A DNA stretch of 7,984 bases from a virus (taxonomy: Duplodnaviria > Heunggongvirae > Uroviricota > Caudoviricetes). Both the position numbers and the translations under genes were made by a program. A model generated the notes under the pieces. It was not told the DNA's origin. It made no database searches and saw only the letters and a program-made list of their open reading frames with translations. Shown here in pieces: positions 380 through 7,702 of this stretch (positions are counted from its first letter, which is position 1; each line of letters begins with the position of its first letter). Location of the stretch: IMG/VR virus record IMGVR_UViG_2850808358_000006, positions 1-7,984 of that record. One strand, 5' to 3'.

Positions 380-465
380 GAAAGTGTAAGACAATATACA
401 CATAAAAAGTCTTACATAAAAGCATTGACATGTAAGCCACCTATAAATAAAGTTACTTACACCTT
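380..465. promoter_or_regulatory. divergent promoter/operator region: TTGACA (425-430), 17-bp spacer, TAAAGT (448-453), with two inverted-repeat operator candidates
   Basis: Inverted repeat 1: TGTAAGAC (385-392) and GTCTTACA (409-416), 16-bp spacer. Inverted repeat 2: TGTAAG (431-436) and CTTACA (456-461), bracketing the spacer and -10 of the rightward promoter. Lies between the divergent RHH gene and the plus-strand operon. Confidence 0.5.
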
Positions 466-559
466 GTTAATGCAAGGTGCAGAAACGACGAAACCCCGCA
501 CTGTAGGAGCAGTAACGGGGCTTCTAACCACCAACGATAGCAAGATTATCGAGGCAGCT

Positions 560-763
560 ATGAGAAATCATACCATACACCCGCAAGGGCGGGACTCGTA
601 CAACCTGAATAAATACATCTGGCGTTTTATCGCCCTGAGCACCGCACAACCGCGCGTGATTCACATCGTGGCCACCAGCGAACAGGAAGCACGCCAGCAA
701 TCCCCGGCTGGCTGCGTGATGGTATTCGCCGCCCGTATTCGTCAGGGGGTGTGCCATGCCTGA
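560..763 (+). CDS. hypothetical small protein (67 aa), first gene of the rightward operon
   Basis: ATG at 560 preceded by GAGG (551-554). Its stop TGA 761-763 overlaps the next start ATG 756 (ATGCCTGA), suggesting translational coupling. This is the C-terminal part of track ORF 2..763. No recognisable motif. Confidence 0.4.
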   Translation: MRNHTIHPQGRDSYNLNKYIWRFIALSTAQPRVIHIVATSEQEARQQSPAGCVMVFAARIRQGVCHA

Positions 764-1076
764 TATGTCAAATTACCAGTACCTGATTAATCCGCATTTT
801 AACTGTGAGCATGATATTGCTAAAAAGATTTATTCCGCTGCGGATGGGGCTACTGACAATATATCAATGGCTGTTGCGTCAATTGGTAGCCTGATGTGGC
901 ATGCGTCAGAAAATGAGGACTATGACGAAAAGGCCATGCGCATTGATATGGGTAATATCGGTTTGTTACTGGCAATGCTTGGACATTTTGATATTTCGTT
1001 ACGGTGCACCATTGAAAATGCCACAGATGCATTAAATGCTATAAAGAAAGCGAATACTGATTCAAATCGGGGATAA
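756..1076 (+). CDS. hypothetical protein (106 aa), AT-rich accessory-like gene
   Basis: Track ORF 756..1076. GGGGG run (745-749) 6 nt upstream of the ATG; overlaps the upstream stop. Visibly lower GC than flanking genes (by eye, not computed). No recognisable motif. Confidence 0.55.
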   Translation: MPDMSNYQYLINPHFNCEHDIAKKIYSAADGATDNISMAVASIGSLMWHASENEDYDEKAMRIDMGNIGLLLAMLGHFDISLRCTIENATDALNAIKKANTDSNRG

Positions 1077-1082
1077 ATAATC

Positions 1083-1382
1083 ATGAGAACGTATTTATCT
1101 GGCTTGACTGCCAGCGGTTATGCACACCCCCAAATTATCCCCGGCGCTATTTATCTGGATAAGAACGGTAACAGAGTAACGGTAAAAGAACTGATGTTTG
1201 ACCGTGTGTATTTTATCCGTGATGGCTATTCATTTCTTAGTTCGCTGAACGTGGAGATCTTTATTAGCAGATTCAGGCGGGAAATCCCGCTTTCCAGAAA
1301 TAACCATGTGTCATGTATGGATGTTGATAAAAAACTACAGGAACTAAAAAACATGATTGCCGCGTGGAGAGAGCAGAAATGA
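1083..1382 (+). CDS. hypothetical protein (99 aa), AT-rich accessory-like gene
   Basis: Track ORF 1083..1382. Stop TGA 1380-1382 overlaps the primase ATG 1379-1381 (ATGA), suggesting coupling. Lower GC by eye. No recognisable motif. Confidence 0.55.
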   Translation: MRTYLSGLTASGYAHPQIIPGAIYLDKNGNRVTVKELMFDRVYFIRDGYSFLSSLNVEIFISRFRREIPLSRNNHVSCMDVDKKLQELKNMIAAWREQK

Positions 1383-2500
1383 AAAAAGCGCCAAATTTAA
1401 AACACCAGCCGCGTGACAAAATGACGGAAGTCATCATTTTTGCGGGTAGTGATGCGTGGGCACATGCGAAACAGTGGCAGGAACAGGACGGGCGACTGGC
1501 TGGCGATAACGTGCCACCTGTCTGGCTTGGAGAGCAACAACTTGCCGAACTGGACAACCTGCAAATCGTACCGGACGGACGCTATCGCGTGCGTCTCTAT
1601 CAGGCGGGGTTATTGCGTCCGGGGCTTGTTAATACCATCGGGCAGAAACTGGCAGTGGCAGGTGTCAGGGATGCTGATTATTACCCTGAAGGAATGCACA
1701 GCCAGAAACGGGAGAACTGGCGCGAATATCTGGAACGTGAACGGGCAGAGCAGGCGGAAAAGAAAAAGGTAGTTGAACTGCCTGTAAAGAAAAAAGAGCC
1801 ATGCTATCAGGATGATGAATTAAAGCCCCGCGTTGAAAGTCGCGTCGATGGTGTTTTCTGGGTAACGCCCAAAGTGGATAAGCAGTCAGGCGAAATTATC
1901 CGGCCTGAGACGTGGTTATGTTCTCCGCTTGAACTACTGGGAACGGGGACGATCGGTAAAGAGCATTACCGCGTGATGCGCTGGAAAAAATTAGCAAACC
2001 ATGAAGTCATCACAATGGCGATCCCGTGTGGTGGCATTGGCGACCGTGACGGCTGGCGGTTGCTTAAAGATCACGGGCTGAACGTGACAACAAACGGCAA
2101 ATACAGGGCTATCCTGGCTGACTGGATGCAGTTAAGCGGAAGCCATGAGGAATGGCAGCTAAGCACAACAACGGGCTGGCATTTTGGCGCGTATATCATG
2201 CCGGACGGCTCAATCATTGGTGATTCTGAAAAACCGATCCTGTTTACCGGAAAAAGTGCCGCTGTTAATGGCTATTCGGTTGCGGGTACGGCGGAGGGCT
2301 GGCGCGACTGCGTGGCGCGGCTGGCTGGTGGCAATCCGTCCATGATGCTGGGTGTTGCCACGTCACTGGCAGCACCTTTGATTGGCCTTGTTGGTGCTGA
2401 CGGCTTCGGGTACATCTTTTCGAACAGTCATCGGCAGGGAAAACCACCACGCAGAACATCGCATCAAGTTTATGGGGAGAGCCGGACGCACAACGGCTGA
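1379..2500 (+). CDS. primase-helicase, N-terminal fragment (Toprim-like primase region); reading frame breaks near 2411-2416
   Basis: Track ORF 1364..2500 (GTG). I prefer ATG 1379, preceded by GGAGAGAG (1366-1373). Toprim-like segment TEVIIFAGSDAW ... RDADYY by eye. The frame-2 tail after about 2413 (IFSNSHRQGKPPRRTSHQVYGESRTHNG) looks like out-of-frame translation because the conserved helicase motifs continue in frame 1. Confidence 0.6.
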   Translation: MKKAPNLKHQPRDKMTEVIIFAGSDAWAHAKQWQEQDGRLAGDNVPPVWLGEQQLAELDNLQIVPDGRYRVRLYQAGLLRPGLVNTIGQKLAVAGVRDADYYPEGMHSQKRENWREYLERERAEQAEKKKVVELPVKKKEPCYQDDELKPRVESRVDGVFWVTPKVDKQSGEIIRPETWLCSPLELLGTGTIGKEHYRVMRWKKLANHEVITMAIPCGGIGDRDGWRLLKDHGLNVTTNGKYRAILADWMQLSGSHEEWQLSTTTGWHFGAYIMPDGSIIGDSEKPILFTGKSAAVNGYSVAGTAEGWRDCVARLAGGNPSMMLGVATSLAAPLIGLVGADGFGYIFSNSHRQGKPPRRTSHQVYGESRTHNG

Positions 2501-2601
2501 CCTGGTACGGCACAGCGTTAGGTATCGCTAACGAGGCAGAGGCGCACAACGACGGGCTGTTACCCCTGGATGAAATAGGCCAGGCCGGAAACGCGCGGGA
2601 G

Positions 2602-3501
2602 GTGTCCACGTCAGCCTATACGTTGTTTAACGGTTCCGGGAAATTACAGGGGGCGAAGGACGGCGGCAACCGGGAGATAAAACACTGGCGCACGGTGGCA
2701 ATCAGCACCGGAGAAATGGACGTTGAGACATTCCTCAAAACGGAGGGGATAAAAGTCAAAGCGGGGCAGCTTGTCCGCCTGCTTAACGTTCCGATGGAAA
2801 AAGCCACGCACTTTCACGAATACAGCACCGGAAAGGCGCACGCAGACGCGTTAAAGGATGCCTGGACAGAAAATCACGGGGCAGCGGGTCGTGAGTGGGT
2901 TAAATGGCTGGCAGGCCACCAGCAGGAGGCAAAGGATACGGTAAGGGAATGCCGCGAACGGTGGCGCAACCTGATACCGGAGAGCTACGGCGAGCAGGTC
3001 CACCGCGTGGGTGAGCGTTTCGCCATACTGGAGGCCGCGCTTGTGCTTTCCTGTCATGTAACTGGCTGGGCCGCGCAGGAATGCCGGGACGCAATACAGC
3101 ATAACTTTAATGCCTGGGTGAAGGAGTTCGGCACGGGTAACAGGGAATTTAAACAGATGGTTGAACAGGCTGAGGCGTTTTTGTCGTCGTTCGGGTTCAG
3201 TCGATACCTTCCTTACCCAAACAGTGATGAACGTGATTTACCGATTAAAGACCTTGCCGGATACAGAAAGGGGAGTATCAGAAATGAAGATGATGAGTTC
3301 CGTTTTTACACGTTTCCTCATGTGTTTGAGGGGGAGATCGCACAGGGATTTAACCCGTCCCACTTTGCCCGCGCGTTGAGTGCTGCCGGAATGCTGGAAG
3401 CGGGTAACGATCGCCGTTACAAGAAAAAGGCTCTCGGCAAAATTGGGGGGAAGCAGCATGTTTTTTACGTGCTGATGTTCCAGCCTGAGGCAGAAGATTA
3501 A
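2602..3501 (+). CDS. primase-helicase, C-terminal fragment (SF3/D5-like or DUF927-like helicase); homology extends upstream to about 2413 in the same frame
   Basis: Track ORF 2602..3501 (GTG). My manual frame-1 translation from 2413 gives HLFEQSSAGKTTTQNIASSLWGEPDAQRLTWYGTALGIANEAEAHNDGLLPLDEIGQAGNAREV, with Walker A (GKTT) at 2437-2448 and a Walker B-like LLPLDE at 2557-2574, then running into the track ORF. This means the two fragments are one gene split by a frameshift. Confidence 0.6.
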   Translation: MSTSAYTLFNGSGKLQGAKDGGNREIKHWRTVAISTGEMDVETFLKTEGIKVKAGQLVRLLNVPMEKATHFHEYSTGKAHADALKDAWTENHGAAGREWVKWLAGHQQEAKDTVRECRERWRNLIPESYGEQVHRVGERFAILEAALVLSCHVTGWAAQECRDAIQHNFNAWVKEFGTGNREFKQMVEQAEAFLSSFGFSRYLPYPNSDERDLPIKDLAGYRKGSIRNEDDEFRFYTFPHVFEGEIAQGFNPSHFARALSAAGMLEAGNDRRYKKKALGKIGGKQHVFYVLMFQPEAED

Positions 3502-3523
3502 CCCCCTGTGTGAGGTGAAAAGT

Positions 3524-3840
3524 TGCGGGTTATGCGGGTTACTCTGTGTATAAGTGCATTAACTGCATGAATAAAAAGGAAATCAATAACCCGCACGTAA
3601 CCCGCAAAACGGCAGTTATAACCCGCAAAAGTGCGATTATAACCCGCAGATGAATAACAGGAAGTGACAGCAAACAGCCACGCGTAACCCGCAGAAAAAA
3701 AACCGTTTGCGGGTTATTTTGAGCATTTTGCGGGTTACGCCACGGCTAAACAGTAAACAGTTAATTTTGTAATGTATTGATATTAAGGAATAAAAAATAC
3801 TTAGCAAGCGAAGATAACCCGCTAACCCGCATAACCCGCA
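3524..3840. repeat. iteron array (9-mer TAACCCGCA / TGCGGGTTA, about 12 copies) around an AT-rich core; putative origin of replication
   Basis: Reverse copies at 3524-3532, 3533-3541, 3708-3716, 3729-3737. Forward copies at 3587-3595, 3598-3606, 3619-3627, 3640-3648, 3685-3693, and three tandem copies across 3814-3840. AT-rich stretch about 3740-3812. Sits immediately 3' of the helicase gene, as in SaPI/PICI-type origins. Confidence 0.7.
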
Positions 3841-3879
3841 CTGTTTTGTATATATATACGAAAAATTGAGATCTGAACT

Positions 3880-4122
3880 ATGAAGGCAAACCGCAAACAA
3901 CCACACTACCGCGCTATTGACCTTACAGAGCACTGGCTGAGAGTGGCGATAAAAATCATCGACCGAAACACGGGGGAAGGATATGCAAAAGCACATCCCG
4001 AACTGATAAGCGCATTCATGACAACGGCAGCTGCAAACTTTGCCACGTTGACAGAACGGGAGATTGCCGAAGCGGAACAGGTAACAACCATCAACGTTAA
4101 AACCGGAGAGCAGACAGCATGA
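3880..4122 (+). CDS. hypothetical protein (80 aa)
   Basis: Track ORF 3880..4122. Stop TGA 4120-4122 overlaps the SSB ATG 4119 (ATGA). Weak Shine-Dalgarno. A TATATATA box (about 3849-3858) immediately follows the last iterons. Confidence 0.5.
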   Translation: MKANRKQPHYRAIDLTEHWLRVAIKIIDRNTGEGYAKAHPELISAFMTTAAANFATLTEREIAEAEQVTTINVKTGEQTA

Positions 4123-4541
4123 CAGCACAGATAGCGGCTTACGGGCGGCTGGTGGCTGACCCGCAGTTAAAGACCACCAGCAAGGGTACACAAATGACGA
4201 TGGCTAGTATGGCGGTACCCCTTCCGTGCAGCCAGGCAGATGACGGAACGGCGACGATGTGGTTATCCGTCCTGGCGTTTGGCAGACAGGCCGACGCACT
4301 GGCAAAACACCACAAAGGCGAACTGGTGAGCGTGGCGGGTAACATGCAGGTAAGCCAGTGGACAGGCCAGAACGGCGAAACGCGGCAGGGCTGGCAGGTT
4401 ATCGCAGACAGCGTAATCAGTGCGAGAACGGCGCGACCGGGCGGAAAAAAAGGCCAGCAGGGGCAGGCTACTGACGCACTGAACAGGGCAAAACAACAGG
4501 CGGGTAACGATGATCCGTACGGGGATAACATACCGTTTTAA
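4119..4541 (+). CDS. ssb: single-stranded DNA-binding protein (SSB family, short form, 140 aa)
   Basis: OB-fold pattern similar to E. coli SSB by eye: MWLSVLAFGRQADALAKHHKGELVSVAGNMQVSQWTGQNGETRQGWQV compared with [43 protein letters not shown]. Gly/Gln-rich linker and C-terminal tip DDPYGDNIPF, matching the conserved SSB protein-interaction tail that ends in IPF. Confidence 0.8.
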   Translation: MTAQIAAYGRLVADPQLKTTSKGTQMTMASMAVPLPCSQADDGTATMWLSVLAFGRQADALAKHHKGELVSVAGNMQVSQWTGQNGETRQGWQVIADSVISARTARPGGKKGQQGQATDALNRAKQQAGNDDPYGDNIPF

Positions 4542-4556
4542 ACAACGAGTAACAGA

Positions 4557-4579
4557 AGCCGGAGAAGTCCGGCTTTTTT
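4557..4579 (+). terminator. rho-independent terminator after ssb
   Basis: Stem AGCCGGA (4557-4563) and TCCGGCT (4568-4574), loop GAAG, followed by a T-run through 4579. Confidence 0.75.
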
Positions 4580-4585
4580 ATGCCC

Positions 4586-4626
4586 AAAAAAAGCCCGATA
4601 AGGTCAGAGGGTCTTATCGGGCTTTT
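4586..4626. terminator. second hairpin, bidirectional-terminator-like (A-run, 11-bp stem, T-run)
   Basis: A7 (4586-4592); stem AGCCCGATAAG (4592-4602) and CTTATCGGGCT (4613-4623); 10-nt loop; TTTT (4623-4626). Confidence 0.55.
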
Positions 4627-4707
4627 GCATATGAGGCTTTTATCTAACAGTATGGTAACTACTGTTGTCGGAGATAATTTCATAATTTGCAACACAACTC
4701 AACATTA

Positions 4708-4764
4708 TTGCGTAAAATGAAATCATGATTATAATCACAACTGGATGAACATCCAGTTGTGATT
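4708..4764 (+). promoter_or_regulatory. candidate promoter of the capsid operon (TTGCGT -35, perfect TATAAT -10 at 4730-4735) overlapped by a perfect 15-bp palindrome
   Basis: AATCACAACTGGATG (4733-4747), 2-bp centre, CATCCAGTTGTGATT (4750-4764), then TTTT. The palindrome begins inside the -10 hexamer, so it is either an operator for a dimeric regulator or an RNA hairpin. Confidence 0.45.
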
Positions 4765-4791
4765 TTTAACGTCAAAGAGGAATTTCCGACT

Positions 4792-4998
4792 ATGGCAGAA
4801 GAGAAAAAAGGCGGGGTGACAGTTTACATAAGCCCAGACATCGTGGAGGCGCTCAGGGAACGCCACCAGCAGAACGTAAAAGCAGGCATTGCGGCAGGAC
4901 TTGATCCGCTGGCGATGGTTGAGCCGTCAACAGGCTGGCAGGTACGCGCCTATTTACGCGCGGCGCTGGGCATGAATCAGACGCATGGAGGTGAATAA
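4792..4998 (+). CDS. hypothetical small protein (68 aa) preceding the major capsid gene
   Basis: Track ORF 4759..4998 (GTG). I prefer ATG 4792 with AAGAGG (4775-4780) upstream. Stop TAA 4996-4998 overlaps the capsid ATG 4998 (TAATG). Function unknown; a scaffold or regulatory role is speculation. Confidence 0.45.
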   Translation: MAEEKKGGVTVYISPDIVEALRERHQQNVKAGIAAGLDPLAMVEPSTGWQVRAYLRAALGMNQTHGGE

Positions 4999-6053
4999 TG
5001 GCAGGCAAAGCAACGGCACTTAACACTAACCAGCTTTTCGCGTACCTGAATCGCGGGGATATTGCGGAATTTAAATTCAGTCCGCTGTTTACCACGCTGT
5101 TTTTCCCGAACGTGGCGACATTCAACACCCAAAACATCATGCTGGACACCCTGGACATTGAAGAGGTTACGATGTCGGCGTTTTGTTCGCCTATGGTGGG
5201 TAGTCAGGTCCAGCGCGATAAAGGGTACGAAACCAGCACGATTAAACCTGGATACATGAAGCCGAAGCACGAAATCGATCCAACGAAAACCATCATGCGT
5301 ATGGCTGGAGAAGATCCGGCACAGCTTAATGACCCAACCTATCGCCGTATGCGCCTGATTACTGGCAACATGCGCCGCCAGATAAACGCCATTAAGGCAC
5401 GCGTGGAATGGCTGGCGGTGAATGCGATAACGACCGGAAAAAACATCATTGAGGGCGAAGGCATAGAACGCTATGAAATAGACTGGAAGATCCCAAGTAA
5501 AAATATCGCCAGACAGGGACCGGGTAAAAAGTGGTCAGAGGCAGATAAGGAAACACACGATCCAATCTATGACATCGAGCTTTATGCTGATCAGGCTGGT
5601 TGCCCCGCAAACGTCATGATTATGGGCGCTGAGGTATGGCGCACGTTACGCAGCTTTAAAAAATTCCGTGAGCTGTACGATCTTTCCCGTGGTTCAGAAT
5701 CCTCCGCCGAACTGGCCTGTAAAAACCTGGGCGAAGTGGTGAGCTTTAAAGGCTATCTGGGCGATATTGCCCTTATCGTCTATTCCGGCAAATACGCCGA
5801 CAGCGACGGCACAGAAAAATATTTCCTTGAACCTGATTTGCTGGTCCTGGGCAACACCAACAATAAAGGGCTGGTGGCCTATGGTGCGATTATGGATCAG
5901 GACGCAGTAAGAACGGGGGCAACGCAAAACATGTACTACCCGAAAAACTGGATTGAGGACGGCGATCCGGCGATTGAGTACGTGCAGACGCACAGCGCAC
6001 CGCAGCCGGTTCCGGCAGATATTCGCAAATTTGTTACTGTCAAAATTGCTTAA
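4998..6053 (+). CDS. major capsid protein, phage lambda gpE family (351 aa)
   Basis: Colinear with lambda gpE by eye along the whole length. Examples (window vs lambda): FKFSPLFTTLFFPN vs FKFDPLFLRLFFRE; KPGYMKPKHEIDPT vs TPGYVKPKHEVNPQ; DPTYRRMRLITGNMRR vs DPAYRRRRIIMQNMRD; FKGYLGDIALIVYSGKY vs YKGMYGDVAIVVYSGQY; VLGNTNNKGLVAYGAIMDQDA vs VLGNTQARGLRTYGCIQDADA; YYPKNWIEDGDPAIEY vs RYPKNWVTTGDPAREF. GGAGGTGA Shine-Dalgarno at 4987-4994. Confidence 0.9.
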   Translation: MAGKATALNTNQLFAYLNRGDIAEFKFSPLFTTLFFPNVATFNTQNIMLDTLDIEEVTMSAFCSPMVGSQVQRDKGYETSTIKPGYMKPKHEIDPTKTIMRMAGEDPAQLNDPTYRRMRLITGNMRRQINAIKARVEWLAVNAITTGKNIIEGEGIERYEIDWKIPSKNIARQGPGKKWSEADKETHDPIYDIELYADQAGCPANVMIMGAEVWRTLRSFKKFRELYDLSRGSESSAELACKNLGEVVSFKGYLGDIALIVYSGKYADSDGTEKYFLEPDLLVLGNTNNKGLVAYGAIMDQDAVRTGATQNMYYPKNWIEDGDPAIEYVQTHSAPQPVPADIRKFVTVKIA

Positions 6054-6064
6054 CGGGGGATTCT

Positions 6065-6400
6065 ATGGACACTCCATACATTGAGTTATTTGCAGGCAGC
6101 CAGCAGGTATCCACGACGCTGGTACATTTTGCCGCTGATGCTGGCGTTATTCAGGAATTTACCCCGCTGATGCTGGCGGACAATGGCGAGTTTAAGGCGT
6201 GGGATGGTCAGGAATCTGGCAAGGCTGTTTATCTGACCTCGTACCCCGTGGACACGTCGACGCAGAAATCAGCACAGTGTTACAAGACGGGGATATTTAA
6301 TATCGCCGCCGTTAACTGGCCTGAGAGCGTCGACACCGACGCGAAAAAATGCGCCGCCTTTGCGGGTTCTGGTGTATCTGTTCAGCCGCTGGCGCGATAA
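6065..6400 (+). CDS. head decoration protein, phage lambda gpD family (111 aa)
   Basis: By-eye alignment with lambda gpD: TPLMLADNGEFKAWDG vs TPLMLDTSSRKLVAWDG; YKTGIFNIAAVNWPESVDTDAKKCAAFAGSGVSV vs [40 protein letters not shown] Shine-Dalgarno at 6055-6060. Confidence 0.85.
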   Translation: MDTPYIELFAGSQQVSTTLVHFAADAGVIQEFTPLMLADNGEFKAWDGQESGKAVYLTSYPVDTSTQKSAQCYKTGIFNIAAVNWPESVDTDAKKCAAFAGSGVSVQPLAR

Positions 6401-6413
6401 GCAGGGGGGAACG

Positions 6414-6827
6414 ATGGCAACGAATGAAAGTATCATGGCGCTACCGCTGGCGAGTAAATTTAAAGCTGAAGCGCGGGCAATGGCTGACAGATGTCTATCA
6501 ACCTACGAAGCTATATATCAACTTAACAAACTGGAAGAACAGGACAAGCCGCGCGCTGATGCGATTATGTCGCTTCATGAATCTGACGACTATCAGCCGC
6601 TGTTACGTGCAATGGCAAACGTGCCTTGTATTGATGTTGATACGGCTAAAAACATCCTGAACATGACCATAGAGCAGGAACGCCAGAAGGTTGCACCAGA
6701 GCTTACCGCAGCCTTTGAAAACTTTATGGACATGCACAGCCCACAAGCCGTATCAGCTGGCATGGCATACGATGGCAGAAACCCGGGCGATGACGGCGAC
6801 ATTGATCGCATACTGAAAACCATCTGA
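6414..6827 (+). CDS. hypothetical protein (137 aa), last gene of the capsid operon
   Basis: Track ORF 6360..6827 trimmed to ATG 6414, which follows a GGGGGGA run (6404-6410). Followed by a terminator. No recognisable motif; not obviously lambda FI or FII. Confidence 0.6.
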   Translation: MATNESIMALPLASKFKAEARAMADRCLSTYEAIYQLNKLEEQDKPRADAIMSLHESDDYQPLLRAMANVPCIDVDTAKNILNMTIEQERQKVAPELTAAFENFMDMHSPQAVSAGMAYDGRNPGDDGDIDRILKTI

Positions 6828-6833
6828 GACAAG

Positions 6834-6855
6834 GCCGGAGAAATCCGGCTTTTTT
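6834..6855 (+). terminator. rho-independent terminator after the capsid operon
   Basis: Stem GCCGGA (6834-6839) and TCCGGC (6844-6849), loop GAAA, T-run 6850-6855. Nearly identical in sequence to the terminator at 4557-4579. Confidence 0.75.
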
Positions 6856-6976
6856 GCGGGTCCTTTCCGGCATATGGACCTGTTACGGGGCGGCGACCTC
6901 GCGGTTTTTCGCTATTTATGACGTTTTTCCGTGAAGGTGACACCACCACCACTTGATTAACATTTAACCAGTTAAT
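6856..6976 (+). other. lambda-type cos site (cosQ-like 6858-6870, cosN cohesive-end core GGGCGGCGACCT 6888-6899, short cosB-like region)
   Basis: GGGTCCTTTCCGG ... GTTACGGGGCGGCGACCTCGCGGTTTTTCGCTATTTATGA matches the joined lambda right end and left end (GGGTCCTTTCCGGTGATCCGACAGGTTACG + GGGCGGCGACCTCGCGGGTTTTCGCTATTTATGAAAATTTTCCGG), recalled from memory. Downstream CGTTTTTCCGTG (6922-6933) resembles the lambda R3 element CGTTTCCGTTCT. Followed by CACCACCACC and the palindrome TTAACCAGTTAA (6964-6975), then the Nu1-like gene. Confidence 0.8.
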
Positions 6977-6988
6977 TGAGGTAACATT

Positions 6989-7423
6989 ATGATTGATAAG
7001 ACTTGTTTTGTAAGTCAGCAGGAAATAGCTGAACATTTCAAGGTAAACAGAACCACTATTCGCGCATGGACCAAACAGGGGATGCCGTATCTTAATGCGG
7101 ATCGCGGAAAGTCCGGCGGTTATCACATCGGGCATACATTGCTTTGGTCTTCAGGTAAAAGCCATCTTGAGGCCATTGGATATCACGTAGAAACCAGTGC
7201 GCTGGAAAAAATTATGGTTGCCAGGCTGCTTTCATCTGAGCGTGACGAGTACTCCAGTGAAGAAACAGAACATCGATTTGATGAAGGTTTGCAGATTTAC
7301 GGCTATTCACCGGAAGATGTGAGCAAAGCACGAAATAAAATGGCTGGCTTTCTGGCTGGGTGGCGTCATGCAGTAAGCGTTCGCCGTGCCAGCATGGAGC
7401 AATCAGCCGATACCGAACAGTAA
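6989..7423 (+). CDS. Nu1-like small terminase subunit homologue (winged-HTH DNA-binding domain), 144 aa; possibly a packaging-redirection (Rpp-like) factor
   Basis: N-terminus QQEIAEHFKVNRTTIRAWTKQGMPYL matches lambda Nu1 KKQLADIFGASIRTIQNWQEQGMPVL by eye. About 35 aa shorter than Nu1. No large-terminase gene follows. TGAGGT Shine-Dalgarno at 6977-6982. Lies directly downstream of the cos site. Confidence 0.75.
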   Translation: MIDKTCFVSQQEIAEHFKVNRTTIRAWTKQGMPYLNADRGKSGGYHIGHTLLWSSGKSHLEAIGYHVETSALEKIMVARLLSSERDEYSSEETEHRFDEGLQIYGYSPEDVSKARNKMAGFLAGWRHAVSVRRASMEQSADTEQ

Positions 7424-7479
7424 AGCCGATAACTTGTTAATCACTCGCAGCAATGCGTGTGATTTGTGCACACTTTCGG

Positions 7480-7670
7480 TTAACTGGTTCGATGTCCGGT
7501 TTTAGTGTCTGTTTTTTGCGCATGTCCGGTTCATGGAAAGCATGTTTTTGTATTTTTCATATAGTTAACTTGAAGAGAAGCCGGACATGGCTCCTGGAAA
7601 ATTTTCATAAATAGCGAAAACCCGCGAGGTCGCCGCCCCGTAACGGGCCATAATTCCAGGAAGGACCCGA
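7480..7670 (-). other. second cos-like site in inverted orientation (cosN core on the minus strand at 7627-7638, cosQ-like at 7656-7668, cosB-like region with three ATGTCCGG-type repeats)
   Basis: The reverse complement of 7594-7640 reads CGGGGCGGCGACCTCGCGGGTTTTCGCTATTTATGAAAATTTTCCAG, near-identical to the lambda cosN left flank. Repeats ATGTCCGG at 7492-7499 and 7522-7529 and the inverted CCGGACAT at 7581-7588 occupy positions like lambda R1/R2/R3, with an AT-rich stretch between them. TTAACTGGTT (7480-7489) mirrors the palindrome in the first cos site. Confidence 0.65.
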
Positions 7671-7702
7671 CGACACCAGACTATCAGAACGATGGGGGCA
7701 CA

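Follow-up and report, generated by a model that had tools for sequence, protein, structure and literature searches.

The described system closest to the one studied here is EcCICFT073, a PICI whose Pri-Rep was analysed by Fillol-Salom et al. (2018, PMC6092414). In E. coli PICIs such as this one, an iteron origin lies 3' of pri-rep, and four allelic Pri-Rep variants have been reported (PMC6092414). Work on EcCICFT073 itself has shown that both rep and ori are required for plasmid maintenance, and that two of its genes, c1499 and c1500, code for a capsid and a decoration protein respectively (PMC6092414). On the protein side, helicases with a DUF927 domain resemble Cch and the Rep of SaPIbov1, and related helicases of the COG3378/D5_N kind are often mis-annotated as primases (PMC10061031). 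In this study, we have explored a stretch of 7,984 nucleotides (the window) taken from an island of the same kind, in which the rep gene is split in the sequence by the loss of a single G from a run of four.

Look-up of exact products located the window in the 5.13-Mb chromosome CP026877.1 (GCA_002950035.1), which, judging by the names attached to its proteins, probably belongs to Shigella boydii. The island is about 11.5 kb long and lies between rcnR and thiM (source locus L003). Its first part carries, in order, int (406 aa), DUF6387, AlpA, small genes, a DUF4222 gene (1083-1382, + strand), the split DUF927 gene, an 80-aa gene and the SSB gene of the island (4119-4541, +). The DUF4222 gene overlaps the rep start through an ATGA and is the conserved upstream partner of rep in all related islands. 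The second part consists of a 68-aa gene, a full-length gene for a lambda gpE-like major capsid protein of 351 aa (4998-6053, +), a full-length gene for a gpD-like head decoration protein of 111 aa (6065-6400, +), a 137-aa gene, a 144-aa gene whose product has a weak N-terminal match to the small terminase (6989-7423, +), and a 93-aa gene. The island thus has capsid, head-decoration and small-terminase-like genes without tail or lysis genes. Directly 3' of rep, a putative replication origin (3523-3840) contains at least 13 copies of the iterons TAACCCGCA / TGCGGGTTA, in both orientations, around an AT-rich stretch.

We find here int, alpA, rep with its ori, a single direction of transcription, an iteron origin directly 3' of rep, and a size within about 10-15 kb, with att direct repeats on both sides and a specific site in the chromosome. 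To judge by this gene content and layout, the host element is a Gram-negative PICI of the EcCICFT073 type, which is a known kind. The rep gene occupies the position of the EcCICFT073 Pri-Rep gene in the same kind of island, with all genes pointing rightward, and an 85-aa member of the cluster that contains the window's 80-aa protein is named as a protein of a CFT073 prophage. The likeness to EcCICFT073 is one of organisation, and the difference is that the gene is here broken by a one-base loss.

The upstream reading frame of the gene (frame 2) starts at GTG 1364 or ATG 1379 and ends at the stop 2498-2500. Its translation runs through GADGFGYIFSNSHRQGKPPRR and closes with LVGADGFGYIFSNSHRQGKPPRRTSHQVYGESRTHNG. 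Frame 1 stays open between 2401 and its stop codon (3499-3501), and reads RLRVHLFEQSSAGKTT and onwards to LLPLDEIGQ (in its longer form, RLRVHLFEQSSAGKTTTQNIASS and onwards to GLLPLDEIGQ). The frame-2 ORF and the frame-1 continuation are the two halves of one 707-aa DUF927 protein. The N-terminal Rep fragment (1379-2500, +), delimited by the ORF listing, its translation and a Pfam DUF927 match, is a product of 373 aa, in which 344 native residues precede 29 that are out of frame (YIFSNSHRQGKPPRR through to NG) and the stop. The C-terminal 363 codons, V345 to D707, lie in frame 1 (2410-3501, +) and align with the SaPI Rep 8tch and with Cch 5dgk. Both translations and the ORF listing place the shift inside 2398-2420, after G344 and 10 codons ahead of K355, the lysine of Walker A, so that the original prediction of a frameshift just upstream of Walker A is borne out. 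Read directly in frame 1, the Walker A codons GGG AAA ACC (G354 K355 T356) stand at 2437-2445 (+), where they align with STGKT of 8tch. They are followed at 2557-2583 (+) by LLPLDEIGQ, a Walker B-like hydrophobic strand and then D-E, in a region aligned to the solved members of the family.

Alignment of the window to two E. coli loci that are 99.8% identical to it revealed a single gap, at a GGG (2408-2410, +; about 1,593,199-1,593,201 in CP026877.1) where the relatives have GGGG. The relatives read TTCGGGGTACAT and the window reads TTCGGGTACAT, aligned as TTC-GGGTACAT. On these alignments, the cause of the split is the loss of one G from the G4 run. The base had been proposed to be a C missing from GGGTAC(C)ATCTT, which would give GFGYHLF; the relatives correct this to the extra G of the G4 run and to GFGVHLF. 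As had been anticipated for a single-base repair, inserting this G in silico gives one ORF of exactly 707 aa (1379-3501), in which the intact peptide is GFGVHLFEQSSAGKTT / GADGFGVHLFEQSSAGKTT. The gap is the sole indel over 4 kb of island in comparison with one of the E. coli relatives (L002). The other (L001) has one further difference, 16 bases of copy number in the ori repeats at 3815, where it carries two more 8-bp units. Alignment of the Rep gene to its relatives detected no second, compensating indel. The gene differs from the common allele by four substitutions, two of which change an amino acid, and the repaired 707-aa protein accordingly has two changes relative to WP_000710147.1, A93V and G559C.

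We also considered a natural division of pri and rep into two genes. The break interrupts the DUF927 domain, 10 codons short of the Walker A lysine, and the earliest start codon of the downstream frame is GTG 2602, which is already past the P-loop; this reading was therefore rejected. As the 373-aa product is without a P-loop and the downstream frame has no start until GTG 2602, neither piece, as predicted from its sequence, could be an ATPase.

The intact 707-aa protein matches Pfam DUF927 (PF06048) with 162.7 bits against a cut-off of 22.6, over residues 168-435 and profile positions 15-283 of 284. The N-terminal fragment alone reaches 74 bits and covers profile positions 15-204 only. Further matches of the intact protein are to PHROG 1139, which carries the label 'DNA primase' (E = 1.6e-180), to PDB 8tch ('Pathogenicity island protein', of the SaPI Rep type; E = 4e-15, 58 bits, residues 218-602) and, weakly, to PDB 5dgk, the SCCmec Cch helicase (E = 0.003). 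Both SSAGKTT (Walker A) and LLPLDE (the acidic strand) of frame 1 align with 8tch and 5dgk. The P-loop SSAGKTT corresponds to STSTGKTFT in the SaPI Rep, and the next D-E strand aligns too; the similarity is nonetheless distant, the protein described here has about 165 extra N-terminal residues, and its host is Gram-negative. With SCCmec Cch, it shares the P-loop ATPase core, and its score against NCBIfam NF047345 (Cch; E = 6.6e-10, 38 bits) is far under the equivalog cut-off of 700, which makes it a relative and not a member. These matches support the assignment of the gene product as a DUF927 initiator helicase of the SaPI Rep/Cch type. Of the earlier label, primase-helicase, the helicase/initiator part is upheld by Pfam DUF927 and by 8tch and 5dgk. 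The primase part is not: searches with residues 1-190 gave nothing in Pfam up to E = 10 and nothing among the PDB sequences, hence no primase domain is detectable in the N-terminal 190 aa and the name 'DNA primase' comes from PHROG family labels only.

The distribution of the deletion was explored in several collections. Of 5,426 complete E. coli genomes searched by megablast with 1364-3501, 186 carry the gene at a coverage of at least 80%. The best 30 of these 186 rows all span 2,139 bases against the 2,138 of the query and are annotated as a single 'DUF927 domain-containing protein'; in the two loci that we inspected, the gene is a CDS of 2,124 nt (WP_000710147.1). When a 101-base query laid over the site was used, 88 complete E. 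coli genomes matched and none did so at 100% identity, and the 40 rows listed for these 88 all span 102 bases. The metagenome collection contains no exact match to the deleted form. All the contigs matched there by a neighbouring 38-mer taken from the window (11/11) have GGGG, and the 10 complete copies among them have open frames of 711-723 codons through the site. The collection of species-representative genomes is without any copy of the gene, and the absence of the deleted form from it carries no weight. As for the predicted products, the 373-aa and 299-aa proteins were found on one contig only, the source CP026877.1, and a search of the Logan read-set assemblies detected neither.

Comparison of the repaired window gene with its metagenome homologues gave dN/dS values of 0.08-0.15 overall. 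Taken separately, the halves upstream and downstream of the site gave 0.07-0.13 in most comparisons, with one upstream value of 0.45. A continuous frame over the N-terminal region and the ATPase core is absent in the window and present in every relative examined. Thus the comparison with orthologous islands, which had been suggested together with the original prediction, finds the frame intact in all of them. Based on the GGGG of the relatives, their open frames and the low dN/dS, the single ORF is the functional, selected form, and the split state of the window is unique.

The intact form of the gene was also found in the same lineage. The repaired 707-aa protein, including A93V and G559C, is at the protein level an exact match to RIF78669.1/WP_119181811.1, which is named Shigella boydii, and this allele is present both in an NCBI draft and in a Logan assembly. 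What led us to this sister assembly was the 144-aa island protein, the exact sequence of which is otherwise recorded only in S. boydii data. Contig QWSJ01000104.1 of the draft (GCA_003572525.1, S. boydii) matches the source at every one of 11,157 flanking bases, without gaps, and a Logan contig of SRR6049580 is identical to the source over 1,224 bases. By comparison, identity in the source flanks peaks at 98.5-98.9% among the 5,426 E. coli genomes. Because of these identities, the draft and Logan data come, as far as sequence can tell, from the same strain as the source or from a near-identical one, with an intact gene.

These observations leave the question of why the source assembly differs. 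The original prediction had held a programmed shift to be less likely than a true inactivation or a sequencing error and had reported no slippery heptamer. We did find one: G GGA AAA at 2437-2443 has the X XXY YYZ form, is in phase for a -1 slip from frame 2 to frame 1 and lies upstream of the frame-2 stop. A slip at this heptamer, whether programmed or as accidental leaky suppression, would restore a protein of 707 aa. The heptamer is however explained by the GKT codons of Walker A read out of register, and GGGAAAA occurs in the window at chance frequency; we estimate the chance of such a heptamer in the overlap at about 0.13 (about 33 codon positions at 1/256 each). Its presence is thus best regarded as accidental. 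We detected no stable RNA structure downstream, the fold of 2437-2530 being -24 kcal/mol with z = -0.43 against shuffles. The two-frame arrangement is not conserved either, as every relative examined has a single ORF, and the homologues have one uninterrupted frame of 707-723 codons under purifying selection on both sides of the site. With the single ORF conserved, the downstream structure absent and the motif at chance level, programmed frameshifting was rejected, in agreement with the original ranking. Furthermore, the computed slipped product, although 707 aa long, has VHLFEQSSA replaced by YIFSNSHRQ, which removes the conserved SS-x before GKT (aligned with STSTGKT in 8tch and SSTGKS in 5dgk), and would probably be inactive. 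We consider it very improbable that recoding of any sort restores the protein. More improbable still is a combined reading, in which the deletion is real and a few ribosomes slip by -1 on the accidental G GGA AAA 27 nt downstream, leaving the island weakly replication-competent. If such leaky slippage did take place, the cell would make a full-length Rep with a substitution of nine residues beside the P-loop, and the locus would represent a natural case of a frameshift mutation whose own register change created a slippery site that partly suppresses it.

The two live options are then the ones that had been named at the outset, a real inactivation and a sequencing error. In the first, one G would have been lost by strand slippage, very recently and in this strain alone, with the inactivation of Rep as the result, and we regard this as quite possible, if not the reading that we would choose. 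Homopolymer runs are natural indel hotspots. The assembly is not grossly error-prone, as it agrees with the independent draft over 11 kb without an indel and has no coding indels in its 4.5-kb right flank. In addition, there are private disruptions nearby in the left flank, a C5 to C4 frameshift in yehC (L003 69) and a 5-bp tandem duplication of TTGCT in yehB (L003 230), both outside the window in the fimbrial operon yeh that adjoins the island; among 5,276 E. coli genomes matched (best identity 97.2%), none has the two changes together. The duplication in yehB is not a typical sequencing error and suggests that this genome accumulates pseudogenes, as Shigella-type genomes do, and a real frameshift would therefore be unremarkable here. 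Against a real deletion, no second dataset has the deleted form, a dataset with identical flanks has the intact allele, private substitutions included, and apart from its four substitutions (two of them amino-acid changes) the gene is undecayed, as is the rest of the island. Given a one-base gap in a G run, its uniqueness, the intact allele in the lineage and the lack of other decay, we lean, with modest confidence, towards a homopolymer-length consensus error in the CP026877.1 assembly, and we infer that sequencing or assembly, and not a mutation in the cell, produced the gap. One G would have been dropped from the G4 homopolymer in the consensus of this one assembly, the strain itself would carry the intact 707-aa gene, and the PICI would then be normal and replication-competent. 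This preference also reflects that, at such divergence, a new neutral frameshift in a given gene of 2.1 kb is less likely than a residual homopolymer error, a relative likelihood which comes from our own rough rate estimates and not from the output of a tool. A search for literature on the assembly (CP026877.1 / GCA_002950035) found nothing relevant. Homopolymer indel artefacts and ordinary frameshift pseudogenes both present the same picture, a single loss in a G/C run that is private and leaves the gene and its neighbours otherwise intact, and neither shows a difference that would distinguish it from the present case.

A broader decay of the element was also considered, since the split gene had been taken as a possible sign of a decaying or helper-dependent element. 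All the other genes are full length, at the same lengths as in intact relatives, and neither the ori iterons nor the att repeats are missing. Islands related to this one but inserted at different att sites share its backbone and its gene lengths. We therefore rejected decay, and the frameshift alone is no ground for classing the island as degraded. Helper dependence, for its part, is not a consequence of the frameshift, as all PICIs share it regardless of the condition of this gene.

A real deletion would leave the island with an inactive Rep and unable to replicate from its own origin, while a helper phage could still induce, excise and package it. By analogy with the pri-rep deletion of EcCICFT073, for which a transfer of 37-87 was reported against 3.4-8 x 10^3 for the parent (PMC6092414), transfer would be expected to fall about 100-fold, or by roughly two orders of magnitude. 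Even so, the interest of this would be minor and limited to the strain. Descriptions of the gene, of its family and of the island type already exist, a private one-base homopolymer indel is routine, and both of its possible causes are ordinary. The result has little weight for biology, and its practical value is in annotation: the 373- and 299-aa ORFs need to be annotated together, as a single 707-aa DUF927 Rep gene and not as two genes, with a flag for a frameshift or a possible sequencing error.

Several further features of the locus and its relatives can be recorded. In related islands (L011-L020), three unrelated replication genes interchange in the slot between DUF4222 and SSB, namely DUF927 (707 aa), AAA_25 (466-471 aa) or D5_N/DUF5906 (584-605 aa), and this variation is module swapping within one PICI family. 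The window is itself a mosaic, with a replication half (459-4542) that shares about 98% identity with islands located at the cspD site, and another part at 4543-7700. For the whole window, including the capsid half, no complete E. coli genome combined 80% coverage with an identity above about 90%. Near the left end of the window, a 253-aa ORF (2-763, +) overlaps a 101-aa YlcI/YnfO-like gene (58-363, -) and a 67-aa Icd-like gene (560-763, +), and is almost certainly not a gene.

The island is bounded by a 14-bp direct repeat, AGAAATACCCGTAT, at L003 5727-5740 and 17192-17205 (outside the window), the left copy of which sits in the TPP-riboswitch leader upstream of thiM. Just inside both ends is a 70-bp direct repeat (L003 5826-5895 and 17059-17128, also outside the window), whose copies are 94% identical and are located upstream of int and close to attR. 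The 540 bases upstream of attR are also present in an E. coli strain (L005).
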